This document shows, piece after piece, positions 2,237-29,977 of a stretch of DNA of 64,000 nt. The notes beneath the pieces are model-generated. The model did not search any database and had not been told where the DNA came from. It saw only the letters and a program-made list of their open reading frames with translations. The stretch covers positions 68,833 to 132,832 of the forward strand of contig JAGQKV010000004.1 of assembly GCA_020429915.1 (NCBI GenBank). The letters are read 5' to 3'. Every line of letters begins with the position of its first letter. Position 1 is the first letter of the stretch. Source of the DNA: Candidatus Omnitrophota bacterium (lineage in GTDB: Bacteria > Omnitrophota > Gorgyraeia > Zapsychrales > Zapsychraceae). The translations under genes and the position numbers were made by a program.

Positions 2237-2274
2237 CAGATCAGCTTAGTTTGCAAGCAAACTAAGCTGATCTG
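2237..2274. repeat. 18-bp near-perfect inverted repeat (2-nt loop) carrying several GATC sites; it overlaps the stop codon of the giant ORF
   Basis: gatcagcttagtttgc / gcaaactaagctgatc is a perfect 16-bp inverted repeat, extended by 2 bp on each side. No U-tract follows it on the minus-strand transcript. Confidence 0.5.
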
Positions 2275-5200: not shown

Positions 5201-8200
5201 CTCCACCTCGGGGACGATCACCGCACCCAGACGGCTGAACTTCTCTCGCAAAGATTCATCCACGATCGTATAGTCGGTCGGCTTTCCCTCTTCTTCCTTG
5301 ATCTCAATTTCGACATCGATCCCGTTCATCAAAGCCACATAGTCTCCCACATAAGTGGCGTCGAGATCCGCCGCGCTCTTGATCACATACAGGGGCCGAG
5401 TAGCGGCACCTCGATCAAGCGAGGACCGGAATCCTTGAACCAGGGCCTCCTGTTCGAGATCTTCGCCCTCGTCCGCGACGACCACGCCATGCTTGAGTGT
5501 GGCACTGGCCGAGCGAATGACGGCGGCCACCGTTCCCAGGTAGTCGGTCCCGGCGTATCCTCCGGTCTGCCCGAGGATCATCAGGATTGCCTCCGCCGCT
5601 TCGGGATTGATATTGACCAGATTGACCAATGCCTGGCCGCACAGACCGCACTTCGTTGATGCGTCCACGGCCGCGGCAGCCACGTGACGGATCGAATCGG
5701 TGACAAACGGATGGGCCTCGTTAAAGAGGTACGCCATCATCGGATTGTCGCGATCCGCACCCAATGTCAGCTGGGTGAGGTCATTTGTTCCGAACGACAA
5801 GAAACTTTTGCGCTTGAAGGCCACATCCTCGCCGAAACGCCCCTGGAACCAGGACAGTTGTTCGGCCTCATGTTTTTTCAGGACGGCAATAAATTCATCC
5901 GCCTGGATGACGTTGCTGGGCAATTCTGTCATCTGGCCGACTTCACGCAGGAAGACCGGCTTACCCAAGGATTCGCTCATCTGGCGTTCTTCTTCATTCA
6001 GAATTTCCGTGAGCCGGTTTAACTCATTCGGCGTGGAAACAAACGGGAAAAAGAATCCGATATTCCGGTATCCCTTAGCCACCTGACGCAACAGCATCTT
6101 GATTTCTTCACGAAGGATAATTTCATTCTCCGGTTGCAGCAACCAGCGCGCACCGCGTTCACCGATCATCGTGGAGACTTCGGGCTCCGGATCAAATACG
6201 CGCGAACCGATCAATTCGGCTGCTTCGTTCTTCTTGAAATCGATACTGCGGTAAAGAACTGCATTCACGTCCTGATTATTGGCAGCGGCCATTGTTGAAA
6301 TCGCACCGCCGTGCACAGCTTCGAAAAAGTCATTGTAGGACATATAACCGATCATCTGGCGGGTCGCCGCCGCGATGTCATCGGTGTGGCTGCGAATCAG
6401 ATCGACGTCCCGCCTTTCGAACCGGCCCAGACTCTTCAAGAATGCCTCGGAGCCTACCTCAGAAAAATTCTCGATCTTGGACTCCGTATCATCGGCCGCC
6501 ACGACCACGCCCTGCTCACGAAGTTTATTACGCGCACCGAAATGTTTCTCGAACCGGACGAGCGCCGTGCGCTCCTCATCGCTGAGTTCGTCTCGGTACG
6601 CCGGATTCTCCTGGGCACGCAAATAATCCAGAACAAGCAGGTTGTCATAGGCCCGTCCGAACCGCGGATTAACGTTTTCCTCCGCATAGGCGAACTCGCC
6701 GCGCATCAGGGCAACCCCCGAGAAACCGTTATATCTGGCAATCTTGGACATTTGCAGCATCGGATGCGGCATCCCCATGATGTAACCGATTTTCGTATAG
6801 ATCTCCGGCAGACGGTCCAGCTGGATTTCGATATTGCGTTCGCTGATCGGCAATTCACCGGCGTAAACCATTCCGTACCCAGTCTTTTCGTTGGCGTTAG
6901 CGTCTACCGTAACCACGTTTCCGGATGTATTGATGTAATCGATAATTCTACGGGCTTCTTCGGGGCCCAGCTCCCCTTCCAGCTTATTGACGAAGGTTTG
7001 GATCCCGACGACCGTTGCGATACCCAACTCGCGCGACATGACGGCCGCATGCGAAGTCGCCCCGCCGACGTCGGCAATAACCCCATAGACGTTCTTCGTC
7101 TGCAGGACCGCATTGTAATCCGGAGTCGTCTCGCGGGTCCGGATGATGATCTTTTTACCGCTGCCAGCCAAGGCCTTGATTTCCTCGAATTGGTCGGTGA
7201 GTTCTTTGGTTTCATCCACTCTGTAGATAACGCCCGTAAAGCTGTTACGGGTCGGAATTCCTTGGGCGACCAATTGACCTTTGCGCAACTCGGTGGCTTC
7301 CCCCTGATCATTGACGACCACTTCCTCTACACCCTTGGCTTCCTTCAGGTCTTTTTCTTTGACATAAGTGTAGCTGATGCGGATCAAATCCGGCTCCTTA
7401 ACGTCCGCCAAGACATTCGAAGAGCGGCGTTGAACCGTGATCGGCGTATTGGGACGCCCCAAATTGAGACCGATCCCGCCTTCCATATCAACCAGATGAC
7501 CGTATCCTTCGGCCTTCTTCATGTATTCCCGGGCTACGTCGATAACTTGACTGTCGGTCACCGAATAAATCTCACGCATAAACTCAGGGACGTCCGTGAA
7601 CATCGTTTTGATTTCCGGATCCTCGCTCTTTTCCTTAACAAGGTGAACCAACAGTTTGAGTTGGTCCTTGTCCAAATCGAAAAGATCGAGATCAGCATCG
7701 GTAATCTCAGCGGCGGTGGCATCTACTTTCAATTTGACAAGCCTTTGGATCGTCTCTTGAATGTCCTCAATAGACGCCCCGGCCTTGGCCTTAAATAAGG
7801 GGCCGGAAACCTCTTCCCCTTCCGCCAACCGCAGGTACGGCGCCAGATCCGATTCGGTCATCCCCAAGGCCCGGAAGGCCTCCACGGCATATATGGCCTG
7901 TACGGTCTTTGTACCCAACTGTTTACTGAGAATGTTGACCTGGGCTTCTTCCCCGTTTTCTCCGGGAACGATATGCACCAGGAAGGTATCCGGTGTTGTT
8001 ACCCCCTGGACTATGGACTCGCCCAGTCGCCACGTGAAGGTCATCGTCGCCACACGGCCCTTGTTCAAATATTCCGCCTCGGGCACATTTTGGAACGTAA
8101 AGCCGGTCCAATTGCTGCCGATGTCGTGACCCATAATAACAAAGGAAGTCACAACGTCCGCCATCGGCATGATCGTAACCCCCATCGCGATATTTTCCAC

Positions 8201-10807
8201 GTCAAAGTAAAAGGAGCGGCGGGCCTCAACAACATCGACCATCTCGACAAATCCGTTGCGGCGCAGGGCCTCTCTCAACTTGACGGAGGTAATAATGTTG
8301 AAATTCTTGTCCCGCAGGGCTTCCGCCACCAGCAGATCATCCCGGTTCTTCGAAGCACTCAGCTTCTCGATGATTTGGTCCGATTTCTTTGTTCGCGACA
8401 AAATGTCATCCATGGCGGTAATAACCATCAGCGTGTCGCGGTACTTCAGGACCTGTTCCGTATAAAGGGAGGAAACATCGTCACGCCAGCGGCGGACAAC
8501 ATCGGCTTCGCCGGCTTCCCCCAAATAACTGTCATGCTGTCCGGCATTGGATCCGACCACCACGTCCGTCAAGACCTTGAACACGATTGAGGCGTCTTCC
8601 GCCTTCCCGGAACTGCGGACCGCTACCAATTCCTGACCGGTGATCTCCACCTGTTTGCGGTAGGCCTCGGCGACGTCGCGGGCAATGTCTTCAGGGATAT
8701 CGTAACTCACAATAAGGGCGCGAATGTCGCGCTCCGCCTTGACCCGCCCTTGGTCGTTGGCCACATCCAGGTCATCCAGAATGGCATTAATCTGCGGGAT
8801 CAAATCGGCATGCGCCTTCAAGAATTTTGTTGAAGCCGTCGTCGTCCCCCCGAAGCTACGCAGATTCCCTTCCGGATCCTGAGACCAATACAGCCCTTGC
8901 TGGAATGTCTTTCCTCCGACCAGCTCCTTGCCGCGGATTTCATCAAGCACTGACGACTCGTAGTCCCAAACCACATTTTGCGTCAGTAACTTTTCATAAT
9001 AGTCATCCAAGAAGTTGTCCACGGACGCTTGGATAAGCTCAGTGAGTTGATCTCCCACCAGCTTTTGTTCCACTTCTTCGGCTTGGGCCTCGGCCTGCGC
9101 GAGCGCCGCGCCGACATCTTCAATTGATTCATCGGCCTTAATCTCAGCCGCTTTGTATAATCCGACCAACTCCCGAATCAGCAAATAATCCAGCATATTT
9201 TCTTGGTCCGAACCCATCAATTGGTTCACCAATCCCGCGCCGACAGAAATACTGTTTTCGCCCACATTGGAACTAGCGACCCGGTAGCTGGCGGCATTAC
9301 GCAACAAGATCACCGGTGATCCATTTTTAATGTCGTCGACAGCCAAAAAGGTAACCTCGTCTACCATATCGTAAAGTTTATCAGCGTCTACACCCGCCGC
9401 ATCCAGCACTTCAATCACGCGCGTTTTGCTTAACAAACTTTTGATATTGGGTACCGGATTGAATGTCGAAACTCTCCCTTTTTCAGCCGCACGGCTAATC
9501 CAGCGTTTGACATTAAAAAACAAACCTTCTGTCGCGTCGGTATCCCCCAGACGGATAACACCACGTTTTTTATCCAAATCTTCGGCAATCAATGCGGAAT
9601 CAGGACGCGCAAAATCGAAGGAGACATCGACTTCCCTGATGCCAGCCGTATCCAACAGACGCACCTGGGCCGGCGTCAGCCCCTCCTCCACAATTACCGC
9701 ATTATCGGTAAAATCTGCCCCGCCCGAGAAATAATGACGCGGGATACTGTCGCCGGTGACCGGATCGACGTCTTCCTTAATATAGTTGTAAACGCCTTTC
9801 TTGAAGGACTCGACATATTGCTCATAAATCTTCTGGTTGACCTGACGATCGGCTGTTTCAATCCCGGCCGTCTTGTTCTGCCCGACATAGGCCTTACCCA
9901 TCAAGCTTTCCTTCAGGTTTTCCTTATACCAATCGGCGAGGATCACCGCATGATACACCTGGCGCAGTTGGCTGAAGGTCCGGCCGTGATTGATTTCCCG
10001 TTCGATCTCGGGAATCAACACTTCCCGCACCACATCGGCAGCGGCACCGGTCACGACGTCCGCTTCGGCGACGGTCTGCCCGTGCTTATCAAACGCTTGG
10101 TGATTCTCCAGCGCCAAATAATCCTCTTCGAGCATCACTTTCAGCTTGCTTTCAATGATGACGGCCCGGTTGGCGTGTTCATAAATAACCGCCTTCTCAG
10201 GAACGATCCAGATTTTATTAAAGGTATTCATCGGCACTTCCGTGGTGCCGAAGCGCTCATAGGCGAGTTTATGCACCCGAGACCAAAACTCCTGTCCGGT
10301 CGTCCCTTCAGGGTACATCATCGATGAAGTCAATTGTTTGAGAAGATAATCCTGGGCCAGCAGGTCGCGGCCCATTTCAGTAACACCGAGGTGATTTCCG
10401 ACAATTCTATTTTCTTCATAGGGGGAGAGGTTGACCCACAACTCGTTCTCGGGAACGGTCAGCGCGGCCAGAAAGTACTTGATCATGCGGCTGGATTCGG
10501 TACGGAAGTCCGCTTCTGCCATAGCGGTTTCGCCCTGGTCCACCAAAAAGCTCATCTGCAGCGGATCATCCGGGTGGATGGTGATCCCTTTGATGATAGC
10601 CGGATCGAATTGGCCCGTGGGTTCAACGAGCGTCCCCGGAACGGGTAGGTCGAGCACCGACCCGGCAACCGTTTGTGCGGCGGCGGGCGGCACCACCGAG
10701 GTGGTTAGAAACACGGACAAGACAATAAAGCTTGTCATTTGGCAGATAAAACTTCGTTTAAAGGCAGCGATCTTCATACTCATTCCCCTCTGATGAATAG
10801 CATTCAC
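2246..10807 (-). CDS. giant multidomain protein (2853 aa) with N-terminal signal peptide/TM and an embedded pyruvate-phosphate-dikinase-like module (ATP-grasp, phospho-His swivel domain, PEP/pyruvate TIM barrel)
   Basis: A single uninterrupted 8.5-kb ORF. The N-terminus has a hydrophobic h-region ending AAAQ. Internal motifs: VAVRSSGKAEDAS (PEP/pyruvate-binding domain), GGATSHAAVMSRELGIATV (PEP-utilizer phospho-His domain) and FLSFGTNDLTQLTLGADRDN (PEP-utilizing enzyme signature 2). About 800 aa N-terminal and about 1000 aa C-terminal are unassigned. Confidence 0.75.
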   Translation of the reverse strand: MNAIHQRGMSMKIAAFKRSFICQMTSFIVLSVFLTTSVVPPAAAQTVAGSVLDLPVPGTLVEPTGQFDPAIIKGITIHPDDPLQMSFLVDQGETAMAEADFRTESSRMIKYFLAALTVPENELWVNLSPYEENRIVGNHLGVTEMGRDLLAQDYLLKQLTSSMMYPEGTTGQEFWSRVHKLAYERFGTTEVPMNTFNKIWIVPEKAVIYEHANRAVIIESKLKVMLEEDYLALENHQAFDKHGQTVAEADVVTGAAADVVREVLIPEIEREINHGRTFSQLRQVYHAVILADWYKENLKESLMGKAYVGQNKTAGIETADRQVNQKIYEQYVESFKKGVYNYIKEDVDPVTGDSIPRHYFSGGADFTDNAVIVEEGLTPAQVRLLDTAGIREVDVSFDFARPDSALIAEDLDKKRGVIRLGDTDATEGLFFNVKRWISRAAEKGRVSTFNPVPNIKSLLSKTRVIEVLDAAGVDADKLYDMVDEVTFLAVDDIKNGSPVILLRNAASYRVASSNVGENSISVGAGLVNQLMGSDQENMLDYLLIRELVGLYKAAEIKADESIEDVGAALAQAEAQAEEVEQKLVGDQLTELIQASVDNFLDDYYEKLLTQNVVWDYESSVLDEIRGKELVGGKTFQQGLYWSQDPEGNLRSFGGTTTASTKFLKAHADLIPQINAILDDLDVANDQGRVKAERDIRALIVSYDIPEDIARDVAEAYRKQVEITGQELVAVRSSGKAEDASIVFKVLTDVVVGSNAGQHDSYLGEAGEADVVRRWRDDVSSLYTEQVLKYRDTLMVITAMDDILSRTKKSDQIIEKLSASKNRDDLLVAEALRDKNFNIITSVKLREALRRNGFVEMVDVVEARRSFYFDVENIAMGVTIMPMADVVTSFVIMGHDIGSNWTGFTFQNVPEAEYLNKGRVATMTFTWRLGESIVQGVTTPDTFLVHIVPGENGEEAQVNILSKQLGTKTVQAIYAVEAFRALGMTESDLAPYLRLAEGEEVSGPLFKAKAGASIEDIQETIQRLVKLKVDATAAEITDADLDLFDLDKDQLKLLVHLVKEKSEDPEIKTMFTDVPEFMREIYSVTDSQVIDVAREYMKKAEGYGHLVDMEGGIGLNLGRPNTPITVQRRSSNVLADVKEPDLIRISYTYVKEKDLKEAKGVEEVVVNDQGEATELRKGQLVAQGIPTRNSFTGVIYRVDETKELTDQFEEIKALAGSGKKIIIRTRETTPDYNAVLQTKNVYGVIADVGGATSHAAVMSRELGIATVVGIQTFVNKLEGELGPEEARRIIDYINTSGNVVTVDANANEKTGYGMVYAGELPISERNIEIQLDRLPEIYTKIGYIMGMPHPMLQMSKIARYNGFSGVALMRGEFAYAEENVNPRFGRAYDNLLVLDYLRAQENPAYRDELSDEERTALVRFEKHFGARNKLREQGVVVAADDTESKIENFSEVGSEAFLKSLGRFERRDVDLIRSHTDDIAAATRQMIGYMSYNDFFEAVHGGAISTMAAANNQDVNAVLYRSIDFKKNEAAELIGSRVFDPEPEVSTMIGERGARWLLQPENEIILREEIKMLLRQVAKGYRNIGFFFPFVSTPNELNRLTEILNEEERQMSESLGKPVFLREVGQMTELPSNVIQADEFIAVLKKHEAEQLSWFQGRFGEDVAFKRKSFLSFGTNDLTQLTLGADRDNPMMAYLFNEAHPFVTDSIRHVAAAAVDASTKCGLCGQALVNLVNINPEAAEAILMILGQTGGYAGTDYLGTVAAVIRSASATLKHGVVVADEGEDLEQEALVQGFRSSLDRGAATRPLYVIKSAADLDATYVGDYVALMNGIDVEIEIKEEEGKPTDYTIVDESLREKFSRLGAVIVPEVEGFVGRADLVNALRQLGIPVIQTLIRNVRAIDETLEQGQRVTIDFNRQIVYRGEKETRVNVPELVSSLAISEEAVSTPTIGFESTFSASKFYKARGVHPLTYVTTTTQSRSELRAALKKAILEAFGTDKSKSLVYETLDLDTHDLVRLRGHEKFLDEAEVNPALGFAGVDALVKDDQWRNLLKLEMEVVAGLISEGYNISVQFNSAKIPESVEQAIAIALEAGVPQGTSFGINTAWPGNYLALGQYISHGLDFVTLNERRLAQGYLSADLYKNPSVMRFYKADKVLPSLKRPVAMITRAVAEAGIALRKIGFDEDAAVLAEGQSVPSPTKVIYTLLETVGEEDGDTIVEIFEPLDVKYSFDRVALEANRELIQNVGEILFEAALRSGRVWRHSIGIPYRVLVGLPEYDLDEDDVLFILAAGHALGLWILGPHESEGRYSRDQVAAMYRLDRGATYPVVKFRPGTELAAHFMADAAMSAEVDSFMAVRIKDRARQAVSLVNGGDRDMVRARLAEAFEAGLQRWGKDKEQAKAALVEAVNAFFVSQYGIKAFASDTDEVEFNNGTISWMGMPIADKKMLGFRVRKVEDDLIDLVATRIELRFGLDGKVMPDGIREVTETAVRLVQGNQNPAKKLAFARELGEAFKEEAQKAGANFDDFADGIVSRMNALRPGMLIFEPGKVVPRLYGSRLVTWLNRVIAIKTDSGFEILEDELVFFAESLTGFLNARYTQADEFLSTETQIINGILAQPQFVQLKDDHTQLVKLSMAAAMTNGLEPKPENPNVVFAWGRLTGALIGEDFPVSQKLNILEDIYIEVLRRNPRIDPVQFVLGLATKGVGEKGPDVFHQIYRRLQGYLTLLRSGELNGTDDVNKVIAAVERVIADEAVIVEAGKEVGGIDLDPNLFELQRKGDGSLIFPKFNGAVERLNLNGFVPVIINVTPVSSLPMLLGMIENAEDESNGISYDSLDPLDRNAKSLSDQTDQLSLLAN

Positions 10808-17803: not shown

Positions 17804-18172
17804 TTATTTGGATTCGAGATAAGAGCTGACATAGTCCGCGATGCTTTCGGCATCGCGCTGGGCGATCTCGCTGAAGAAAATAGCGATGTTGTGATCATCG
17901 CTCGCAGCGATCTGCTCGGCCCGCACGACCACGCCCTGAGCCATGATCTGCTTGGTCACGTCCTTGCCGTTCTTGCGCAGCGGCAGCAGCAGGCAGACCT
18001 TCAGTTTGGTCATAGGCTCAATGTAGCGGTTGACTTTGCAATACAGACCGGAACGGCTGATATTGGCCGTTTCAGTGACCATATCACCGTTATTCTGAGA
18101 AATCCGTATGGGGATGTTGTTGCCTAAGCGGGGGTCTTTTCTGCGTTCGTGCGGTGGAGGTGATGTTACCAC
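17804..18172 (-). CDS. PilZ domain protein (c-di-GMP receptor)
   Basis: RRKDPR ... NISRSGL matches the PilZ motif RxxxR...(D/N)xSxxG. Single-domain, 122 aa. Confidence 0.75.
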   Translation of the reverse strand: MVTSPPPHERRKDPRLGNNIPIRISQNNGDMVTETANISRSGLYCKVNRYIEPMTKLKVCLLLPLRKNGKDVTKQIMAQGVVVRAEQIAASDDHNIAIFFSEIAQRDAESIADYVSSYLESK

Positions 18173-18446: not shown

Positions 18447-18788
18447 CTAAATGGCAGCGGCCACCATGCCGCGGATCTTTTTTTTCTCTTCTGGAATGAT
18501 TTCCGGATCGGCAAATGTGACGCCCGCCTGGTATTGATCGCTGTACGGGATTTGCGATACCCATACGATCCGGCCCCGGCAGTCTACATTTTGACCCGGT
18601 CTAAGTGCAATGTTAAGAACAACTTCAGTACCAAGAGGCAGGAATTCCGGAAGCCTCAGGCGCAGGCCGGACTCCGATATGTCGTAGGCCACGGTACCGG
18701 CGAAATGACCGGGGTCTAATAATTCGTAGCGCACCGGCTCTTTAAATGTTATCCTTTTAGCAAGGCGTCGTTCTTCGGCAGTCTTCAT
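18447..18788 (-). CDS. PilZ domain protein (c-di-GMP receptor)
   Basis: RRLAKR ... DISESGL matches the PilZ motif. 113 aa. Confidence 0.75.
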   Translation of the reverse strand: MKTAEERRLAKRITFKEPVRYELLDPGHFAGTVAYDISESGLRLRLPEFLPLGTEVVLNIALRPGQNVDCRGRIVWVSQIPYSDQYQAGVTFADPEIIPEEKKKIRGMVAAAI

Positions 18789-19010: not shown

Positions 19011-19829
19011 ATGTACAAAGAATTCTACAATTTCCGTGAGAATCCGTTCAACATCACCGCCGATCCGGATTTCTTCTTCTCAAGCGTTCAACACAAGGAA
19101 GCCATGACCCACCTTGTCTATGGCATCCAGCAACGCAAAGGGATCATTGCCATCACCGGGGAGATCGGAACCGGCAAGACCACACTCTGCCGCACAGTTC
19201 TTAACCAGCTGGATGAAACCATCAAGACCGCGCTGATCCTCAATCCGAATTTTTCCGACCTTCAACTCCTGCGGCTGATATTACAAGACCTGGGCATCCG
19301 CACCTCCGCCCGCAGTAAATACGATATGATCGATGCCCTCAACGAGTTCCTATTGGAGGAAACCAGCGCCGGGAACAATGTGGTGGTCATAATAGACGAA
19401 GCGCAGAATCTCAAAGTCAGCCAGCTGGAGCAGGTCCGCCTGTTGTCGAACCTGGAAACAGAGAAAGAAAAACTGCTGCAAATTGTCCTGGTCGGTCAGC
19501 CGGAGCTCATCGACAAATTGAAGCTCAACCAGTTGCGTCAGTTAAATCAGCGCATCGCCGTCCGCTATCACATCAGCTCCCTGACCCTGGACGAGATGAA
19601 GAACTACATCCGCCACCGCCTTGAAAAGGCGCAGCCCCCCGCAGATGAAGACCACCGCATCCGCTTTACGGATGAGGCTCTGGAGGCCATTTTTCATGTC
19701 TCACGCGGAACCCCCCGCATGGTCAATGTCCTGTGTGACCGGGCCTTGCTGGCCGGATATGCGGCCGAGACGTTTATCATAGACCACAACATCATTCATC
19801 GTTGCTCAAGGGAGGTCGGACAAAAATGA
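19011..19829 (+). CDS. exeA: ExeA/GspA/MshM-family AAA ATPase
   Basis: N-terminus MYKEFYNFRENPFNITADP, Walker A ITGEIGTGKTT, and ExeA-like length (272 aa). Confidence 0.8.
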   Translation: MYKEFYNFRENPFNITADPDFFFSSVQHKEAMTHLVYGIQQRKGIIAITGEIGTGKTTLCRTVLNQLDETIKTALILNPNFSDLQLLRLILQDLGIRTSARSKYDMIDALNEFLLEETSAGNNVVVIIDEAQNLKVSQLEQVRLLSNLETEKEKLLQIVLVGQPELIDKLKLNQLRQLNQRIAVRYHISSLTLDEMKNYIRHRLEKAQPPADEDHRIRFTDEALEAIFHVSRGTPRMVNVLCDRALLAGYAAETFIIDHNIIHRCSREVGQK

Positions 19830-20383
19830 GTATCATCAATGATGCCCTGAAACGCGCACAACAACGGATGAAAAAAGGCGGCGAGGACACGCCGCCCGAG
19901 AACAGCTCGGTGCAGGATCTCACACGCGAACAGAAACCGCCCTCCGTTCAGCATCCTCATCCCCACGCTCATCCACATCCGCGTCCCAAACCGGAAGGCG
20001 ATAAACCGTCTCTAAAGAAGAAAAAAGTCTGGTACCGGACCGTCTCGGCACTGGTCGTGACCTTTTTCTTTATCACCGGCATCCTGCTGGCCACCCTTTT
20101 CTTTTTAATGAAGCGCTCCGCCACGGAAACCGATCCGACCGCGGTGCTGCGCCGTGAATACATGCCCAAACCGCTTAAGCGGAACTTTAAACCCGGTGAA
20201 CTCGTCCTGTCGGGCACATCATTCGTGGAAGACAAGCGCGTCGCCCTGATCAACGACGGCATCTATGAGGTTGGGGATATCGTGGAAGGCTACCGGGTTA
20301 CTTCGATAGAGCTTAAGGAAGTACAGCTGGAAAATCTGCGCGGCGACAATGCGATCGTCCTGCGGACCCGTAGCAATAATTAG
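19826..20383 (+). CDS. ExeB/GspB-like partner protein (N-terminal SIINDALKRA motif, His-Pro repeat, TM, C-terminal periplasmic domain)
   Basis: The ORF was trimmed to MSIINDALKRAQ, matching the GspB N-terminal motif. It has a 4-nt overlap with exeA. It carries an HPHPHAHPHPRP repeat and one TM helix. Confidence 0.6.
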   Translation: MSIINDALKRAQQRMKKGGEDTPPENSSVQDLTREQKPPSVQHPHPHAHPHPRPKPEGDKPSLKKKKVWYRTVSALVVTFFFITGILLATLFFLMKRSATETDPTAVLRREYMPKPLKRNFKPGELVLSGTSFVEDKRVALINDGIYEVGDIVEGYRVTSIELKEVQLENLRGDNAIVLRTRSNN

Positions 20384-23195: not shown

Positions 23196-23795
23196 TTAAA
23201 ATCTCCTCACTAGGCAGTCTTTATAGCGTTCACTAAGTCTCCGGGAATAATTCTTGGCTTCCGCGGCCTGGTTGAACTGGCCTACGGTCACGATGGCGTA
23301 ATCCCCTTTGCGCAGAACAAATGTTTCGTAGCCCTTGTCCTTCAGCCACGAGGCTTCCCGTTGCGCGGAGGTATCCTTCTTAAACGAGGCCACCTGGATC
23401 GTGAATTTATCATCGTCCACAACCTCTTCCGGCAATTTGATTTGCATCACCTCTACGCGCTCCGGCTCCGGTTCGGGGACGGCCGCCAACTCCTCCGGCA
23501 ACTCGAAAACCTCGGTTTTCTCCGGCACAGAGCTGACTATTATAGCAGGTTCCGCCGCAATGTCAGCAACAATTTTCGGGTCCTCCGAGACGGAATCGCC
23601 CCCTCCCCGGCCCTGCCGGACCCCCAGACAAAAGCACGTGACGTTGGTGATAATCAGAAATAGGCAGATCCCTACGATATGTTCGGTCTGCAGGCGGATC
23701 GTGCGGGGCTGGAGATAGCTTAAATTGGGATGGTATTCAGGCCGCTTCCCGTGGGGAAACAGCTCAAATTGGTTATGAATATTACTATCAGACAT
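23196..23795 (-). CDS. SPOR-domain protein (DedD/FtsN-like septal peptidoglycan-binding protein)
   Basis: An N-terminal cytoplasmic segment, one TM helix, an acidic linker, then a C-terminal SPOR domain (FTIQVASFKKDTSAQREASWLKDKGYETFV). Confidence 0.7.
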   Translation of the reverse strand: MSDSNIHNQFELFPHGKRPEYHPNLSYLQPRTIRLQTEHIVGICLFLIITNVTCFCLGVRQGRGGGDSVSEDPKIVADIAAEPAIIVSSVPEKTEVFELPEELAAVPEPEPERVEVMQIKLPEEVVDDDKFTIQVASFKKDTSAQREASWLKDKGYETFVLRKGDYAIVTVGQFNQAAEAKNYSRRLSERYKDCLVRRF

Positions 23796-23811: not shown

Positions 23812-24879
23812 CTACTGTTTCATCGAACACAAGTAATTTCTGAATTTTTTCTGCCGCGTAAGTTCTATAAATGCTTCCACCACCTTAGGATCGAACTGCG
23901 TACCGCTGTGGAGCTTGAGTTCCCGGAGCGCATCCTGGAAGGTCAGTTTTTTCTTATAGGGCCGGTCGGAAATCATAGCCAGGAAAGAATCCACAACCGC
24001 GATGATGCGCGCCCCCTGCGGGATCTGCTCCTTGCGCAACCCGGACGGATAGCCTGATCCATCGTATTTCTCGTGATGATAAAGAATGATCGGCAAAACC
24101 GGTTTGAGAAAGTCGACCGGTTTAATCAATTCCACAGCGCGGGCGGGCTGATCGCGGATCAGCTTAAACTCCTCCGGGGTCAGCTGACTGGATTTCGATA
24201 AGACATCGTACGGGATATCAATGGCACCGGCATCGCGCAAAATACTGGCATGATACAAATTGTTCACCTGGTCAGAAGATACGCGCAGTTTCTCGCCGAG
24301 CATACTGACGATATTGAAATAATTTGAGGTGTTTTTCTTGATCGCCGACGAGCCCTGCTGCTGCAACAACCCCCCGATAAACTTGATGCTCTCCAGGATT
24401 GTCTTCTGCTGCATTTCATAAAGTTGCAGGTTCTTAATCGCCGTAACGGATTGTTCGGTTACGACAGAAAGCATATCCCGGTCGAAATCGTTGAACGGAT
24501 CCTCCCCCCGCTTGCGCTTTACGTAAATCGCACCGACGATATCGTCGGCAACGAGCGGAATTCCGATCAGACTTTTCTCAAACACGGAAAATCCCTGCAG
24601 CATCCGCTCTTCTTTGGGCGTGAGTTCGTTCAAATCCTTACGTTTATCCAGCAGAATATTGATGCGGTTGTCGAATACGGCTTTGAGGATGACCCGTTTT
24701 TTGCTGGGATCGAGCAGGAGTATCGTCGACGAGCTCGTCTTGATGAATTGACACAGCAGCCGGGTCAGACGCAATATCAACTCGCGGACGTTGTAAGTTG
24801 AGTTGACCAGGCGGTAAACCATGTGCACCGCCGAAAGGACCAACTTATACTTTTTTGAATGGATTGAAGAGTTTTTCAT
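23812..24879 (-). CDS. GAF domain / HD-GYP domain c-di-GMP phosphodiesterase
   Basis: HD-GYP signature HHEKYDGSGYP, with an N-terminal GAF-like domain. Confidence 0.8.
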   Translation of the reverse strand: MKNSSIHSKKYKLVLSAVHMVYRLVNSTYNVRELILRLTRLLCQFIKTSSSTILLLDPSKKRVILKAVFDNRINILLDKRKDLNELTPKEERMLQGFSVFEKSLIGIPLVADDIVGAIYVKRKRGEDPFNDFDRDMLSVVTEQSVTAIKNLQLYEMQQKTILESIKFIGGLLQQQGSSAIKKNTSNYFNIVSMLGEKLRVSSDQVNNLYHASILRDAGAIDIPYDVLSKSSQLTPEEFKLIRDQPARAVELIKPVDFLKPVLPIILYHHEKYDGSGYPSGLRKEQIPQGARIIAVVDSFLAMISDRPYKKKLTFQDALRELKLHSGTQFDPKVVEAFIELTRQKKFRNYLCSMKQ

Positions 24880-26059
24880 GTTCGTCCAATGCGGAGCGGT
24901 CGGTCATGCCCGCGATGTAATTGCATATGATGGGTCGCGCCCTGATTTGCAGCTCCTTCAACTCCTGCCCGCCCATCTCATCGAGCATTGTCTTGCCCGC
25001 GCGCGGCCAGTACCGGTAGGGCAGCTGGTCCGGATTCTCCAGATAGGCCATGAAGATGCCCCGGATAACCCGCCGTGCTTTTTCCGTCATCCGCAAGACT
25101 CGATAATGCGAATAGAGCTTGTCCATTAACAGTTTTTGCAAAAAGTTTCGCCTCTTTTTCATCGTCGGAGAAAAATCGATCAGAGGCTCAGGCAACTCCT
25201 GCAGGTGATATTTCTTGACCTCTTCCGAACTCTGCAGTGCCGCTTTTTTCAGCTGTGCCAGGGAATTCTCCAGCAAGTCTCGCGTTTGCGTATCGATGAG
25301 AAACTTAACGACCTGGTATTTCAGCATCTCCTTGTTCGTCGGATCCAGCTGCGCGTCGATCTTCTCGTACGAATCCCGCCACAGATCGCTGTCCATCAAA
25401 TCGTCCTTGGTGATGCATCCTGAAGTTAATCCGTCGTCGATGTCATGCGACAAATACGCCAGTGCGTCAGCGATGTCGACCACCTTCGCTTCCAGGGTGG
25501 GGCCGATATTCTTGTATCGGTCCAATTCACCACTGATATCGTAGGTGGTTTCATGTTTCAGTATCCCCACGCGGACTTCTTCGGTCAAATCCAATCCGTT
25601 GAATTTCGGATAGCGTTTCTCGAATTCGGTGACAATTTGATAGCTGCGGAAATTATGGTCGAATTGCTGTCCGGCCTCCTTCATCAGATCGTTAAGCGCC
25701 TTTTCTCCGGCGTGCCCGAAGGGGGGGTGGCCCAGATCATGCGCCAAAGCGATAGCCTCGATCAAATCTTCGTTGAGACGCAGGCTGCGGCCGATGGTGC
25801 GGGCGATCTGCGCGACCTCGATGGTGTGCGTGAGCCGGGTCCGATAGTAATCTCCTTCGAGGATGACAAAGACCTGCGTCTTGTACTCCAGCTTACGGAA
25901 GGCCTCGGAATGGACTACCCGGTCCCGGTCGCGCTGGTAACAGGTGCGCACGAGGTGTTGGGAGTTGTCATGTTCGCGGCCGTTGGAGTCCTTACTACGC
26001 ATGGCGTAGGGCGCCAGCGTCCGGTCCTCGAGGGCTTCAATATCTTCTCTGGTATGCAT
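24845..26059 (-). CDS. dgt: dGTPase-family (Dgt-like) deoxynucleoside triphosphate triphosphohydrolase
   Basis: QRDRDRVVHSEAFRKLEYKTQVF and HDLGHPPFGH HD motifs. Confidence 0.85.
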   Translation of the reverse strand: MHTREDIEALEDRTLAPYAMRSKDSNGREHDNSQHLVRTCYQRDRDRVVHSEAFRKLEYKTQVFVILEGDYYRTRLTHTIEVAQIARTIGRSLRLNEDLIEAIALAHDLGHPPFGHAGEKALNDLMKEAGQQFDHNFRSYQIVTEFEKRYPKFNGLDLTEEVRVGILKHETTYDISGELDRYKNIGPTLEAKVVDIADALAYLSHDIDDGLTSGCITKDDLMDSDLWRDSYEKIDAQLDPTNKEMLKYQVVKFLIDTQTRDLLENSLAQLKKAALQSSEEVKKYHLQELPEPLIDFSPTMKKRRNFLQKLLMDKLYSHYRVLRMTEKARRVIRGIFMAYLENPDQLPYRYWPRAGKTMLDEMGGQELKELQIRARPIICNYIAGMTDRSALDEHEKLFNPFKKV

Positions 26060-26531
26060 CGACGAGCCTCTTGTGGACCTCTTTCAATGATTGAGAAATC
26101 ACCTTGGTGTCTGCCGTGACCGGCATAAAATTGACATCACCTTGCCAGCGGGGAACGATGTGCATATGAACATGCCCCGGAAAACCGGCACCAGCCTGCT
26201 TGCCCAGATTGATACCGATGTTCAGCCCCTGGGCGGATACCGCATCGCGCAACAGCGCCTTGCCGATTTCCATGGCCTCGTAGAAATCGGCCCGCTCGGC
26301 CGCCTTCATTTTAGCGGTGTCATTGACGTGACGGTAAGGGACAATCATCAGATGACCGTTGTTGTAAGGGTAGATGTTAAGAACGGCGTAACAGTATTCG
26401 CGACGGAAGATCACGAAATGACTACGGTCCCGGCGTTTTTCCTTGGCGATGTTGCAGAAGACGCAGCCCGTCTGCTTACCGACAAGACTCGTCACGTACT
26501 TCGATCGCCACGGCGCCCACAGCTTATCCAT
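26037..26531 (-). CDS. HIT-family nucleotide hydrolase/transferase
   Basis: Histidine triad HVHMHIVPR and an N-terminal CVFCNI motif. The start was reassigned to MDKLW. Its ATG overlaps the upstream stop as TAATG. Confidence 0.7.
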   Translation of the reverse strand: MDKLWAPWRSKYVTSLVGKQTGCVFCNIAKEKRRDRSHFVIFRREYCYAVLNIYPYNNGHLMIVPYRHVNDTAKMKAAERADFYEAMEIGKALLRDAVSAQGLNIGINLGKQAGAGFPGHVHMHIVPRWQGDVNFMPVTADTKVISQSLKEVHKRLVDAYQRRY

Positions 26532-27013
26532 TACATTTTCACTTTCACTATTTTCGGAAAGATTTGTTTGTCCTTGATGTCGATGATGCCGTAAGAACAA
26601 TAGGGCGCCAGAACCATGTCATTCGGACTACCCGGGTTGAAATAAAGGACCTTATTGATGGTTTCGTTGCAGGGGATGTGGGAATGACCGAAGATCACGA
26701 TATCCACTTTACTGCTGCGAAACTCCCGGATGGCATTGTTAAGTGTATCTTTCGGCGGACCGTAGCTGTGGAAAAGCCCGATCATAAAATCTTCGCATTT
26801 AAAAATCTGCCGCTGGGGCAAGATATCGCGAAGATGGGAATCGTCCATGTTCCCCACCACCGCCTTTACTTTAGTGATTTTCTGAAAAACTTCAAGTTCT
26901 TTTGTCGTGCAGAAATCGCCCGCGTGGATGATCATGTCCACCTTCTTGAAGTCATTCAGCATTTGCCGGGGAATATCGAGGGAATGCGTGTCCGCCACCA
27001 CACCTATTTTCAT
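26531..27013 (-). CDS. YfcE/MJ0936-family metallophosphoesterase
   Basis: GDxHG-type motifs: VVADTHS, HAGDF, GNMD and GHSHIP. Confidence 0.8.
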   Translation of the reverse strand: MKIGVVADTHSLDIPRQMLNDFKKVDMIIHAGDFCTTKELEVFQKITKVKAVVGNMDDSHLRDILPQRQIFKCEDFMIGLFHSYGPPKDTLNNAIREFRSSKVDIVIFGHSHIPCNETINKVLYFNPGSPNDMVLAPYCSYGIIDIKDKQIFPKIVKVKM

Positions 27014-28647
27014 CGCAAAATACTGGGTTTGTCGAATAATGTTACCAAGGCCTTGATTTCTTCCTCATTCCAAATCCAAAACCGCTCCTGCAGCGCCCTG
27101 AGCCGGGTGTGCTGGTCAAGCTCGGACAGGGATATCATCAGGCATTTTTCCGGTTTCCTTTCAAGCCTTTTGGCCTCGGCCACGATCGCGCTGACGTCCT
27201 GCTCCTTAAAGCCGTCCTCCTTGAGCACGATCAGCCATGTCGAATTGTCGGTATGGGCCTGAATGACGTCGATGAGCAGGCCGTGCTCATCGGCAACGGT
27301 CGCCGGGCTCAGATCACGGAAACTCGGCAGCCGGTATTTTCGGCCGTTCAGATCGAGCGATTCGTTGACAAGACAATTCAGCAGCTCCAGAATCCGGGAC
27401 GAGAAGGCCTTTTGGGACGTATCCTGAAAGTTTTCGACGTACAGCTGGAATTCCGCCCGGAACTGCTGCCGCTGTTTATCCGGGGTGAGCTCGATTTCAT
27501 TGAGGCGCCGCTGGAAAACAAATTTGATCCAATAACGAAACAATTTGTCTTTAAAGTAATGTAGCTTCCCGTTGCGGAAAATGATCCCTTCATCCTGCAG
27601 CCGGCGCAGCGACTTGGTCAACTGGGCCTTATTGATGTCTACCTCGTCGAGCAACTCCTCATTTCGCTGCAAACCGTTGGCCAAAGCTATCAAAACCGGG
27701 CCGGCTACCCGGTTACCTTTACCTAAACACAACTCGTTCATAATCAGTTCGAAGTGTCGGCTGATAACTCCCCAACGGTCGAACAATGTGTTCTCGACCG
27801 CCTTCGCGATCAGGGGAAGATAGATTTCTGATTGCTGGAATCTGGCGCGCAGATTCATCACCTCCCGGCAGACAAGCTGCAGATACAGCGGATATCCGCC
27901 GGTAAACTCCGTCAGAAAGTGGCAAAGTTGATTGCCGATTTTGTGCCCCTCCAGAAGATGTTCGATGAAATCCTGACTGTGACGGTGGTCAAAGGCATCC
28001 ATCTCGACCATTTCAAAGTTACCGAACAAGAGCGACAACTTTTCCGCGAGAATTTTCTGAGCCGAATACTTGTATGAACTGGAAAGGATATAGAGACAAT
28101 TCTTCTGAGTCATGATCTTGGAACTCAAGCTCGTGAAGACATCCGGCACCCCAAACTCGTCCAGCACCTGAAATTCATCGAAGATCAGGACGCAAAATTG
28201 TCCCGACTCGTAGGTATATATTTCGGGAACCGTCATCAGCCCGAAAAACGAGGAAGCCATCTTCCCCTTCCCTAAGTTCAGCTGGATATTCCGGATCACC
28301 TCGACCGTCTCCGGCAGATACGGCTTGGCCTCTTCCAGCAGCAGGTTGAGATCATCATGGACCGGCTGGCCTCTGTTCTTCAGAAAGTGATACAGCAGGC
28401 TGGCGCTGAACTTCTGGAAGAAATAGAAAATATCTTTGTTCTCAAGATCAAGATAGACCGGCGTCACCTTGCTGTCGTCAAGATTGTGCAGAAACTCCTG
28501 CAAGACGGCGGTCTTCCCCACGTGCCGGTATCCGATCAGGGCCACATTCTGGCGATACCCTTCCTTAAGCCCGCCGACCCGTTTTTTCAGCAGGTCAAGG
28601 ATCTCTCCCCGGCCGTGGAAATGATGTTCAAATTCGATTTCACTCAT
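27010..28647 (-). CDS. AAA+ ATPase of the archaeal-type ATPase family with a DUF234-like C-terminal domain
   Basis: Walker A GYRHVGKTA and Walker B VLIFDEF. 545 aa. It has 4-nt start/stop overlaps with both neighbours. Confidence 0.65.
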   Translation of the reverse strand: MSEIEFEHHFHGRGEILDLLKKRVGGLKEGYRQNVALIGYRHVGKTAVLQEFLHNLDDSKVTPVYLDLENKDIFYFFQKFSASLLYHFLKNRGQPVHDDLNLLLEEAKPYLPETVEVIRNIQLNLGKGKMASSFFGLMTVPEIYTYESGQFCVLIFDEFQVLDEFGVPDVFTSLSSKIMTQKNCLYILSSSYKYSAQKILAEKLSLLFGNFEMVEMDAFDHRHSQDFIEHLLEGHKIGNQLCHFLTEFTGGYPLYLQLVCREVMNLRARFQQSEIYLPLIAKAVENTLFDRWGVISRHFELIMNELCLGKGNRVAGPVLIALANGLQRNEELLDEVDINKAQLTKSLRRLQDEGIIFRNGKLHYFKDKLFRYWIKFVFQRRLNEIELTPDKQRQQFRAEFQLYVENFQDTSQKAFSSRILELLNCLVNESLDLNGRKYRLPSFRDLSPATVADEHGLLIDVIQAHTDNSTWLIVLKEDGFKEQDVSAIVAEAKRLERKPEKCLMISLSELDQHTRLRALQERFWIWNEEEIKALVTLFDKPSILR

Positions 28648-29324
28648 GGCAAATAGTAAAGCGGATTATCTCCCTTATCGTTCTTACGAATCTGAAAATG
28701 CAGGTATGCCAATCGGTCATGCTCACCCACCCGGGCGATAGGATCATGTTTGAATACATAATCTCCCAATTTGACCAGGACCTCGGCGTTTTTGGCATAC
28801 ACGGAATAAAAACCGTCCTGATGATCGATCACCACGGTATAGGCCTGGCCGGGGATGTAATCGGCAAGCACGACTTTCCCGGAACGTGCGGCCCGCACCA
28901 CCTCACCGCGCTGCGCCTTGATATCGATTCCCGGCGAGGCGATACCGTCTTTACGCTTCTGGTGAAAATAGTGGATGACCTGACCGCGCAACGGCCACAC
29001 AAAATCATCCTTCGTTTCTTCATCGTCGATGTATATCTCTTTGACGGCATCGGCCCCGGGAATGAATACCAGCTGGTTGACCTCGATCTCGGCAATGTTG
29101 GGAATATTATTCGATCGCACAATCTCGTCGATAGTTACATTGTAGGCCTTGGCAATCCGCCAAATAGTCTCTTTCTTGTTAACCTTGTGGTAGATGCCTT
29201 CCGGCTTGAGATTGGGCGGGGGTAAAACGAGCGTCGGCGGGGCCGGCTGGGTCGTCCGGCACCCGGACAAAGGGGCGACCATAACCAGAACGAGAATAAA
29301 AAACTTTCGGTTGGCCATCATCAT
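28644..29324 (-). CDS. NlpD-like lipoprotein with LysM and M23 peptidase domains
   Basis: Lipobox LSGC, LysM segment (YHKVNKKETIWRIAKAYNVTIDEI) and an M23 core (DHQDGFYSVY ... LHFQIR). The start was taken at MMMANRKFF. Confidence 0.8.
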   Translation of the reverse strand: MMMANRKFFILVLVMVAPLSGCRTTQPAPPTLVLPPPNLKPEGIYHKVNKKETIWRIAKAYNVTIDEIVRSNNIPNIAEIEVNQLVFIPGADAVKEIYIDDEETKDDFVWPLRGQVIHYFHQKRKDGIASPGIDIKAQRGEVVRAARSGKVVLADYIPGQAYTVVIDHQDGFYSVYAKNAEVLVKLGDYVFKHDPIARVGEHDRLAYLHFQIRKNDKGDNPLYYLP

Positions 29325-29977
29325 GCGTGTTCGACCTTCATCATCGGGTTGATGATACCTTTGAATTCCGTCACGGCCCGCGTCACGTCTTCGGCCCGGC
29401 AGATGGCCCGGCAAACAGCGAAATGGGTTACACCGACGGCCAAAAGCTTGTCGATATTTTCCGCGGTTATCCCTCCGATTGCGTACACGGGCACCGGGGT
29501 CTCCCTCACCACCTGTTCCAGCAGTGTCAAATCCATAGGTGAGCGATCGGGCTTGGTCAGGGTCTTGAACACTGATCCAAAACCGATATAATCAGCCCCC
29601 TCCGCCACGGCGCGCCGGACCTGCGCAATGGTCTGACAGGAAGCCCCAATGACATATTTGTCTCCCAGCAGGCGCCGGGCCTCCGGCAACGGAAGGTCTT
29701 CCTGACCGAGATGAACACCGGCGGCCCCAACGGCATGGCATATATCGGCCCGGTCGTTGACAATAAACGGTGTCCGCGGATTCATGCCGGCCAGTATCTC
29801 CCGGGATAGCCGCAGGACGTCTCGACCTTCTCCGCCTTTGTAACGCAGCTGCAGGGGCGCCGCCCCGGCACAGCCGGCCGTGCGGGCGATCCGCGGTAAC
29901 TCCGCCGGATCATTCACGGCAGCATCCAGGATCAGGTACAGATTAGATTCGGCTAATAACCTTTTTTTCAATGGCAT
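29321..29977 (-). CDS. thiE: thiamine-phosphate synthase
   Basis: TMP-TENI fold motifs LYLILD, VQLRYK and AIGGI. The ORF was trimmed to MPLKKRLL. Confidence 0.8.
   Translation of the reverse strand: MPLKKRLLAESNLYLILDAAVNDPAELPRIARTAGCAGAAPLQLRYKGGEGRDVLRLSREILAGMNPRTPFIVNDRADICHAVGAAGVHLGQEDLPLPEARRLLGDKYVIGASCQTIAQVRRAVAEGADYIGFGSVFKTLTKPDRSPMDLTLLEQVVRETPVPVYAIGGITAENIDKLLAVGVTHFAVCRAICRAEDVTRAVTEFKGIINPMMKVEHA

Follow-up and report, generated by a model that had tools for sequence, protein, structure and literature searches.

The locus raises the question of whether four tightly packed genes, for an ATPase, a phosphoesterase, a HIT protein and a dGTPase, form an anti-phage module or an ordinary nucleotide operon. 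They lie in the window, a stretch of 64,000 nucleotides that belongs to a MAG of the uncultured phylum Omnitrophota. The initial annotation had described these genes as a translationally coupled array and had likened it to nucleotide-depletion and signalling-type anti-phage modules, with a housekeeping nucleotide-salvage operon as an equal alternative. We found that the array is real: all four open reading frames are present on the minus strand where it had placed them, and a separate set of gene calls for the same contig in ENA agrees. The array and its immediate neighbours are as follows.

28644..29324, minus strand: LysM and M23 peptidase protein, NlpD-like (Pfam LysM and Peptidase_M23; gene call of 226 aa)
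27010..28647, minus strand: P-loop NTPase (the ATPase), 545 aa (AAA_14 and AAA_16)
26531..27013, minus strand: YfcE/MJ0936-type metallophosphoesterase, 160 aa (TIGR00040)
26037..26531, minus strand: HIT protein of the Ap4A-phosphorylase branch, 164 aa (PF01230; HVHMHIV motif)
24845..26059, minus strand: dNTP/dGTP triphosphohydrolase (dGTPase) of TT1383-like housekeeping type, 404 aa (NF002326)
23812..24879, minus strand: GAF-HD-GYP phosphodiesterase, 355 aa (PF13487; HHEKYDGSGYP motif; weak GAF matches)
23196..23795, minus strand: SPOR-domain protein (PF05036)

Reading the junctions from the sequence, we observed that the tightly coupled run begins with the NlpD-like gene, whose stop codon overlaps the ATPase start in an ATGA at 28647–28644. 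The ATPase and YfcE genes share an ATGA at 27013–27010 (4-nt overlap), and YfcE and HIT share a TAATG at 26533–26529 (1-nt overlap). All of the array's junctions had been described as overlaps of these two kinds, which is correct for this pair of junctions but not for HIT and dGTPase, which overlap out of frame by 23 nt (ATG at 26059, TGA at 26039–26037). The dGTPase start at 26059 is genuine, because the alignment with TT1383 begins at query residue 3. As had been noted, the array runs directly into the GAF-HD-GYP gene, which the dGTPase gene overlaps by 35 nt (ATG at 24879, TAA at 24847–24845). The SPOR gene begins 16 nt past HD-GYP and is part of a clade-level synteny block. Gene calls in the surrounding 21 kb place overlaps at 14 of the 24 same-strand junctions and reveal an unbroken overlap chain of ten genes (gmhA-rfaE-thiD2-thiE-nlpD-ATPase-YfcE-HIT-dGTPase-HD-GYP); overlaps therefore do not single out the four genes. 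GC content is even across the locus, and no tRNAs were found there.

The gene identities first given for the array proved correct by Pfam and NCBIfam matches and by structure. YfcE scored 108.7 bits against TIGR00040 (cut-off 56.25), and its translation contains the metal-binding motifs DTH, AGD, GNMD and GHSH (D-x-H, GD, GNxD and GHxH in the family); its closest solved relatives are the PDB entries for MJ0936 and 2kkn. The HIT protein matched PF01230 at 55.4 bits, with the H-x-H-x-H-x-x motif present as HVHMHIV. The solved structures nearest to it are 6af2 and the Ap4A phosphorylase Rv2613c, 3ano, and it scored below the cut-off of the ATP adenylyltransferase equivalog NF052622 (141 bits against 290). 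The HD-GYP protein scored 139.8 bits against PF13487 (HD_5; cut-off 27.2), with the HHE...DG.GYP motif intact. The dGTPase carries HD and HD_assoc domains in Pfam. It exceeded the cut-off of the NCBIfam housekeeping equivalog NF002326 (428.7 bits against 390) and fell below those of the anti-phage models NF041026 (225.6 against 400) and NF003701 (192.6 against 383). Among solved structures, Thermus TT1383 is the nearest to it (2dqb; 295 bits, query residues 3–397 aligned to chain residues 4–374). The proposed comparison of defensive with housekeeping dGTPases thus comes out, by these cut-offs, on the housekeeping side. The PADLOC dGTPase model nevertheless matched this protein strongly (300.8 bits) and the PADLOC ThsC model matched the HIT protein weakly (37 bits), so automated defence finders could flag the locus.

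The ATPase matched AAA_14 and AAA_16 above the Pfam cut-offs. It scored 27.9 against ATPase_2 (PF01637), for which the cut-off is 33.2 and to which most of its homologues have a precomputed match. A profile search matched it to 2fna (E=4.5e-8), and the best PDB matches of its AF2 model (pLDDT 84.5) were two archaeal Walker ATPases, PABY2304 and SSO1545, with Orc1/Cdc6 next, so that its designation as archaeal-type is borne out by structure. Avs3, a STAND immune protein, and CED-4 are also among the fold neighbours of the model in the PDB. Pfam and the predicted model together place a P-loop NTPase first, then a winged helix at about residues 298–360, a helical linker and a C-terminal domain at about 425–545. 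This last domain, of roughly 120 aa, has a predicted alpha/beta, restriction-endonuclease-like fold, and in a fold search it weakly matched PD-(D/E)xK nucleases such as MspJI (E=7e-4). The C terminus had been called DUF234-like; this holds at the level of the fold, through that weak match, but not at the level of the family, as PF03008 (DUF234) gave no match to the ATPase even at E<=10.

Homologues of the ATPase comprise 214 representatives at 50% clustering (E<=1e-30). Members as distant as 24% identity retain the full length of about 540 aa, and the family spans deep Omnitrophota clades; every member bearing a source name is from Omnitrophota, and no relatives were found on plasmids or phages. 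In an alignment of 130 representatives, the Walker A lysine was retained in all 130 and the Walker B DE in 114, and these family-wide motifs suggest an active NTPase. The same alignment revealed no conservation of the nuclease-like residues D460 and K476: the D460 column is a gap in 91 of the 130 representatives, K476 is a lysine in 41, and the acid at K-2 is absent. The D...(D/E)xK catalytic residues of PD-(D/E)xK nucleases are thus not conserved, and the C-terminal domain is probably catalytically dead.

Within the window's clade, the genes sit in a 17-gene housekeeping block (accC-x232-pfk-gmhA-rfaE-thiD2-thiE-nlpD-ATPase-YfcE-HIT-dGTPase-HDGYP-SPOR-SH3-M50-aroB). This block was colinear in all 80 species loci over the stretch that each contig covers, with none out of order. 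Among species loci long enough to decide, YfcE was present in 78 of 78, HIT in 71 of 74, dGTPase in 69 of 71 and HD-GYP in 67 of 69, and a dereplicated set had YfcE, HIT and dGTPase all together in 60 of 62 loci of the clade. The 17-gene surroundings are kept as well as the four genes: the NlpD-like gene lies directly upstream of the ATPase in 69 of 70 loci of the clade, and tblastn found the SPOR gene in 58 of 66. The overlap of −4 recurs at the NlpD-like/ATPase junction in 32 of 76 loci and at the ATPase/YfcE junction in 52 of 79. ATPase identity (mean 48.6%) lies inside the range of its neighbours and tracks the identity of housekeeping genes (Spearman rho 0.59). These sequence comparisons mark the locus as a core one, fixed in place and passed on vertically.

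Across the rest of the phylum the composition of the array changes. We annotated metagenome loci by tblastn with a chosen query set, so that counts for the cassette (the genes between ATPase and HD-GYP) cover the query genes only. Outside the window's clade, 37 dereplicated loci contained HD-GYP in 33 cases, HIT in 30, dGTPase in 25, YfcE in 9 and ThyA in 5. The initial annotation had proposed testing whether the four genes co-occur as a unit. They do so in the window's clade, but YfcE (9 of 37) and dGTPase (25 of 37) are often missing outside it, and what stays with the ATPase throughout is the GAF-HD-GYP gene, which had been set outside the unit. In 93 of the 99 dereplicated loci HD-GYP is found downstream of the ATPase, and it is the most persistent partner of the ATPase across the phylum. 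Because HD-GYP is kept while the cassette in between varies, the persistent unit is ATPase...HD-GYP and not the four-gene set. The upstream heptose/thiamine block was found in 13 of 41 loci outside the window's clade (not dereplicated), and all 19 loci that lack it still have HD-GYP downstream of the ATPase, including cluster 9, where the surroundings are response-regulator and OmpA genes. The ATPase and HD-GYP genes are directly coupled by a 4-nt overlap in two loci (L095 and L096), an overlap of the same length joins ATPase and HIT in another (L093), and the ATPase/YfcE pair survives a synteny break in two more (L073 and L080). One clade has a thymidylate synthase gene (ThyA) inserted in the cassette. 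Two cluster-18 loci lack dGTPase and HD-GYP, and one family member (L086) stands alone without these partners. The ATPase–HD-GYP linkage exceeds residual synteny. Part of it could nonetheless be inherited order rather than selection, because deep regional synteny persists in several clades.

Three other explanations bear on this arrangement. The genes may form no functional unit at all, being neighbours through inherited order in small, packed genomes in which start–stop overlaps are a genome-wide habit. The frequency of overlapping junctions around the array is consistent with this, as are the equal conservation of the entire 17-gene block, the persistence of the upstream block in several deep clades and the lack of any excess of promoters or terminators delimiting a sub-operon. 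We nevertheless regard it as unlikely, since HD-GYP still follows the ATPase in loci whose flanks have both been replaced, the two are directly coupled in some loci, and ATPase/YfcE, which outlasts breaks in synteny, is the most constantly overlapping junction. Still less probable is a role for the ATPase in replication or the cell cycle as an Orc1/Cdc6-like factor, with replication or division coupled to dNTP supply and to Ap4A and c-di-GMP levels. In structure, only the archaeal ATPases match it better than Orc1/Cdc6 proteins do, it has a predicted winged helix, and division proteins (NlpD and SPOR), ThyA and a dNTPase are encoded nearby. However, the likeness to Orc1/Cdc6 is generic to the AAA+ clade (query-normalised TM-score 0.35–0.38, identity 12–13%), origin-like repeats and replication genes are absent nearby, and NlpD and SPOR are missing from the cluster-9 neighbourhoods.

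On the anti-phage explanation, a STAND-like sensor ATPase would detect infection and unleash the dGTPase, HIT protein and phosphoesterase to deplete nucleotides. That dGTPases can be defence effectors is established (Tal et al. 2022, cited in PMC13276650); the PADLOC matches, the nuclease-like fold of the ATPase C-terminal domain and the resemblance of the ATPase fold to Avs3 and CED-4, two of many such AAA+/STAND proteins, point the same way. We consider this explanation very improbable. The dGTPase satisfies the housekeeping equivalog and not the curated anti-phage models, and it was found not in a variable, defence-island or mobile context but at the same position of the colinear block in 69 of 71 species loci. 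The locus is single and fixed across 80 species, with core metabolism genes on its flanks, its divergence is congruent with that of housekeeping genes, and its ATPase has no plasmid or phage relatives among those found. Moreover, the ATPase lacks a sensor repeat domain and its family has not conserved the nuclease catalytic residues, some clades carry a biosynthetic ThyA within the cassette, and whole clades dispense with dGTPase and YfcE.

The housekeeping alternative is thus the better reading. The array is probably this lineage's version of an Omnitrophota core operon, passed on vertically, for nucleotide and second-messenger turnover, with a P-loop/winged-helix partner, and not an anti-phage system. 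Downstream of the ATPase and on its strand comes a cassette of nucleotide-enzyme genes, usually overlapping or near-abutting, whose content varies; it draws on YfcE phosphodiesterase, ThyA, Ap4A-phosphorylase-type HIT and TT1383-type dNTP triphosphohydrolase, with HD-GYP almost always last. In the window the operon lies inside a longer chain of overlapping housekeeping genes. The enzymes would turn over dNTPs, dinucleoside polyphosphates and a cyclic-dinucleotide messenger in the ordinary way. The ATPase may bind DNA as a nucleotide-dependent switch, regulating nucleotide and second-messenger homeostasis or working together with it, and it may act most intimately with the HD-GYP enzyme. One possibility is that this process is tied to the cell cycle, because NlpD, SPOR and ThyA genes adjoin. 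That no such four-gene unit is a described system was rightly stated, and we know of no description of the ATPase...HD-GYP operon of Omnitrophota.

The dGTPase belongs to the same HD-domain dGTPase/SAMHD1 superfamily as anti-phage dGTPases, but it is nearest to the Thermus TT1383 dNTPase and not to E. coli-type Dgt, and it resides in a fixed core locus. Like STAND/Avs proteins, the ATPase combines a P-loop NTPase and a winged helix with an attached nuclease-like domain. Unlike them, it has a degenerate nuclease motif, it lacks a TPR, WD40 or LRR repeat sensor in Pfam and in the model, because the NTPase, winged helix, linker and small C-terminal domain fill all 545 aa, and its locus is not variable, mobile or island-borne. 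The HIT protein and phosphoesterase resemble Ap4A phosphorylase Rv2613c and YfcE/MJ0936, respectively, and their sequences contain the catalytic motifs, although the HIT protein, at 141 bits, scores under the cut-off of 290 for the actinobacterial equivalog. PF13487 and its motif liken the HD-GYP protein to GAF-sensor HD-GYP c-di-GMP phosphodiesterases with an RpfG-type catalytic domain, of which it would be a further member; to our knowledge, HD-GYP proteins have not been described as conserved genetic partners of an Orc/STAND-like ATPase. The best structural matches of the ATPase, in P-loop and winged helix, are the ATPase_2/DUF234 proteins PABY2304 (2qen) and SSO1545 (2fna). DUF234 has been assigned a PD-(D/E)xK-like fold (PMC3424549), and the C-terminal domain of the ATPase is likewise weakly PD-(D/E)xK-like. 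The ATPase differs from these proteins in scoring under the PF01637 gathering threshold, in lacking a PF03008 match and in having nuclease residues that are unconserved across its family. We know of no report of ATPase_2/DUF234 proteins that are single-locus and phylum-wide with a constant GAF-HD-GYP linkage. By contrast, the family of the window ATPase occupies a single locus throughout the phylum and is constantly linked to a GAF-HD-GYP gene.

The array and the gene it runs into are as follows:

27010-28647, minus strand: ATPase, 545 aa
26531-27013, minus strand: YfcE-type metallophosphoesterase, 160 aa
26037-26531, minus strand: HIT protein, 164 aa
24845-26059, minus strand: dGTPase, 404 aa
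23812-24879, minus strand: GAF-HD-GYP protein, its gene overlapping the dGTPase gene by 35 nt

The first four ORFs lie exactly where the initial annotation had placed the array, on the minus strand, and gene calls on an identical ENA metagenome contig agree. The initial annotation had also described the four genes as joined by ATGA and TAATG overlaps. Reading of the sequence confirmed ATGA at ATPase/YfcE and TAATG at YfcE/HIT, but revealed a 23-nt out-of-frame overlap at HIT/dGTPase; the alignment with Thermus TT1383, which begins at residue 3, shows the upstream ATG of the dGTPase gene to be genuine. The junction of the ATPase gene with the NlpD-like gene on its upstream side is also ATGA, and gene calls gave an unbroken overlap chain, gmhA-rfaE-thiD2-thiE-nlpD-ATPase-YfcE-HIT-dGTPase-HD-GYP. 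This chain extends beyond the four genes, and 14 of 24 same-strand junctions in the 21 kb around the array overlap (gene calls); the coupling is real but delimits no four-gene unit. Scans for consensus promoters and terminators at sub-operon boundaries found no excess over shuffled controls, and Rfam, run on the window and four deep loci, revealed no riboswitch or known RNA family. Across species, long out-of-frame overlaps are kept (window 26037-26059, 24845-24879 and 29943-29977; loci L004-L083, which carry ATPase relatives). In these loci, thiD2/thiE overlap by 35 nt in 45 of 64, HIT/dGTPase by 23 nt in 28 of 71 and dGTPase/HD-GYP by about 41 nt in 40 of 69, the last value depending on the start choice made here.

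Every enzyme of the array belongs to a known family and has intact catalytic motifs. YfcE scored 108.7 bits against TIGR00040 (cut-off 56.25), and the HIT protein is a PF01230 member whose nearest solved structures are 6af2 and the Ap4A phosphorylase Rv2613c. The HD-GYP protein matched PF13487 at 139.8 bits with its HHEKYDGSGYP motif intact. The dGTPase, which contains HD and HD_assoc domains, is of the housekeeping type: it cleared the housekeeping equivalog NF002326 (428.7 versus 390) and fell below both anti-phage dGTPase models (225.6 versus 400; 192.6 versus 383). Among solved structures it comes nearest to TT1383, a dNTPase of T. thermophilus (295 bits over the full length), with E. coli Dgt at 66 bits. 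A protein search with the dGTPase returned Omnitrophota orthologues only.

The ATPase matched Pfam AAA_14 and AAA_16 over threshold and ATPase_2 just under it, and residues 298-360 matched a winged helix. From 17 homologues, AF2 produced a model (pLDDT 84.5) whose best matches were PABY2304 and SSO1545, both archaeal Walker ATPases, followed by Orc1/Cdc6, with Avs3 and CED-4 lower in the list. When modelled separately (pLDDT 83), the last 162 residues weakly resembled PD-(D/E)xK nucleases (MspJI, E=7e-4, then VC1899, AspBHI, AF1548 and Can2), which agrees with the published assignment of DUF234 to this superfamily (PMC3424549). The DUF234 HMM gave no match to the ATPase. We rejected an active C-terminal nuclease: D460, K476 and E482 are kept in the window's clade, but conservation of D460 and K476 breaks down in a wider set of 130 family representatives. 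All 130 have the Walker A lysine, and 114 retain DE at Walker B. This pattern of kept Walker motifs and unconserved D460 and K476 suggests that the protein is probably an active NTPase with a catalytically dead nuclease-like domain.

The window comes from an Omnitrophota MAG. Full-length homologues of the ATPase, about 545 aa long, number in the hundreds, every source-named one being labelled Omnitrophota or Omnitrophica. A scan with one genome per GTDB species found a relative in 197 species; the best 80 of these 197 loci, at 41-69% ATPase identity, were compared by tblastn with 17 window proteins. The block accC-x232-pfk-gmhA-rfaE-thiD2-thiE-nlpD-ATPase-YfcE-HIT-dGTPase-HDGYP-SPOR-SH3-M50-aroB was colinear, with none of these 80 loci out of order. 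Counting only loci whose contig reaches far enough, presence among these best 80 of 197 was as follows:

YfcE: 78/78
HIT: 71/74
dGTPase: 69/71
HD-GYP: 67/69
nlpD: 67/68
rfaE: 64/64
aroB: 58/62

Two species of the window's clade (L073 and L080) have a synteny break directly after YfcE, beyond about 9100, and their loci are without HIT, dGTPase and HD-GYP; past the break, L073 carries an auxin-efflux-carrier-like membrane protein and SmpB. The ATPase diverges in step with the housekeeping genes (rho 0.59), and its mean identity (48.6%) is ordinary for the block. GC content is flat, tRNAs are absent, and no plasmid or phage relatives of the ATPase were found. Together with the colinearity, these observations mark the locus as core and vertically inherited, quite the reverse of a defence island. 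Many contigs with this Omnitrophota-type block were deposited as 'uncultured Planctomycetales bacterium' MAGs (L009, L015, L018, L024 and others), titles that are probably a labelling artefact.

An exhaustive search recovered 214 family proteins at E<=1e-30 (50%-identity representatives). With few exceptions they are about 540 aa long and align end to end, at identities down to 24%; they split into many subfamilies, and the source-named members are Omnitrophota. Exact-protein look-ups showed deep-locus flanks quite unlike the window's (response regulators, ResB/CcsA, PfkB, OmpA and Mur ligases), and nevertheless the same kinds of gene downstream of the ATPase:

Gene order at deep loci carrying ATPase relatives
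L090: nlpD-ATPase-YfcE-HIT-dGTPase-HD-GYP
L093: ATPase-HIT-dGTPase-HD-GYP
L092: ATPase-ThyA-dGTPase-HD-GYP
L091: ATPase-HIT-dGTPase-RadC
L095 and L096: ATPase directly followed by HD-GYP, 4-nt overlap
L086: ATPase without partner

Scanning metagenomes with two deep subfamilies as seeds brought in 80 further loci, annotated by tblastn. Partners were counted after dereplication at 90% ATPase identity, in loci whose downstream sequence runs for 5.5 kb or more:

Partner genes of the ATPase
All loci (n=99): HD-GYP 93, HIT 90, dGTPase 85, YfcE 71, ThyA 5
Outside the window's clade (n=37): HD-GYP 33, HIT 30, dGTPase 25, YfcE 9, ThyA 5

Outside the window's clade, only 13 of 41 loci (counted without dereplication) have the upstream heptose/thiamine block, and HD-GYP lies downstream of the ATPase in 19/19 loci without that block. 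Thus, the conserved unit is an ATPase...GAF-HD-GYP bracket around a variable nucleotide-enzyme cassette. The cluster is phylum-wide and vertically inherited, and its ATPase/HD-GYP linkage outlasts replacement of both flanks. The four genes singled out initially do co-occur as a unit in the window's clade, but elsewhere that composition appears in one locus only. In one deep Omnitrophota clade, the biosynthetic thymidylate synthase ThyA has a place inside the cluster, either separating YfcE from HIT or standing in for them (ThyA-bearing loci: L150, L152, L155, L156, L164, L167-L169, L173 and L175; also L092). A few distant members at 24-25% identity have no usual partners or sit at contig ends (L086, at 3914-5542, L087 and L088); these may be paralogues, or their lineages may have lost the linkage. 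Downstream of the ATPase, L086 has small ORFs and genes for a PRiA4_ORF3 protein and a TPR protein.

Several other genes in the window were recorded. Downstream of the HD-GYP block, at a distance of a few kb, are two small PilZ-domain genes (window about 18447-18788 and 17804-18172, minus strand; L001 19860-20201 and 20476-20844); PilZ domains are c-di-GMP receptors. The region's only plus-strand genes overlap: 19011-19829 encodes an ExeA/GspA-like AAA_22 ATPase with weak nSTAND1 and ATPase_2 matches, and 19802-20383 a 193-aa His/Pro-rich protein with no Pfam match. A 2853-aa ORF (2246-10807, minus strand) has the pyruvate-phosphate-dikinase (PPDK) domains PPDK_N, PEP-utilizers and PEP-utilizers_C only at residues about 650-1730, its large N- and C-terminal extensions having no Pfam match. 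Related locus L091 encodes a PPDK of normal size (909 aa). Very long proteins have been noted for Omnitrophota (bioRxiv 10.64898/2026.06.07.730766).

We consider it likely that the array is a core housekeeping operon and not an immunity system. The anti-phage reading raised initially has one real support, a strong match of the dGTPase to the PADLOC dGTPase model (300.8 bits); this is overruled by NCBIfam's curated models and by the context of the locus, which make defence highly improbable. Defence-finder HMMs would thus flag a core, vertically inherited operon, and dGTPase matches need context before immunity is called. That the genes stay together purely through inherited gene order would fit synteny of the 17-gene block, but the wider family search and the deep-clade ATPase/HD-GYP linkage, independent of flanks, make this unlikely.

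Within a housekeeping operon, the enzymes would have the ordinary task of turning over dNTPs, dinucleotides of the Ap4A type and a cyclic-dinucleotide messenger, and the ATPase–winged-helix protein may be a nucleotide-dependent DNA-binding regulator or partner, tied most closely to HD-GYP. In this particular regulatory role our confidence is low. An Orc-like cell-cycle role, which the Orc1/Cdc6 resemblance might suggest, seems quite unlikely. Omnitrophota are ultra-small, host-associated bacteria, and the cluster could conceivably, though we hold this with considerable doubt, be an undescribed phylum-wide regulatory module. A nucleotide-sensing Orc/STAND-like P-loop protein, with its winged helix and dead nuclease-like ligand-binding domain, would act with an obligate GAF-HD-GYP partner to set DNA-precursor and second-messenger levels. 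The signal sensed might be c-di-GMP, another cyclic dinucleotide, Ap4A or dNTPs, and the module might gate replication or division.

Consistent with the initial statement that no such four-gene unit is described, our searches of the searchable literature, which took in Omnitrophota genomics papers, brought up no account of this cluster. The analysis defines a conserved gene cluster in a phylum for which we know of no isolates, its ATPase keeping GAF-HD-GYP and nucleotide enzymes despite rearranged surroundings. To our knowledge, the ATPase_2/DUF234-like proteins are a group without experimentally established function; the cluster offers a testable hypothesis for one such orphan and a handle on Omnitrophota nucleotide signalling. 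Compared with ATPase_2/DUF234 proteins, the window's ATPase represents a related but distinct, uncharacterised branch.
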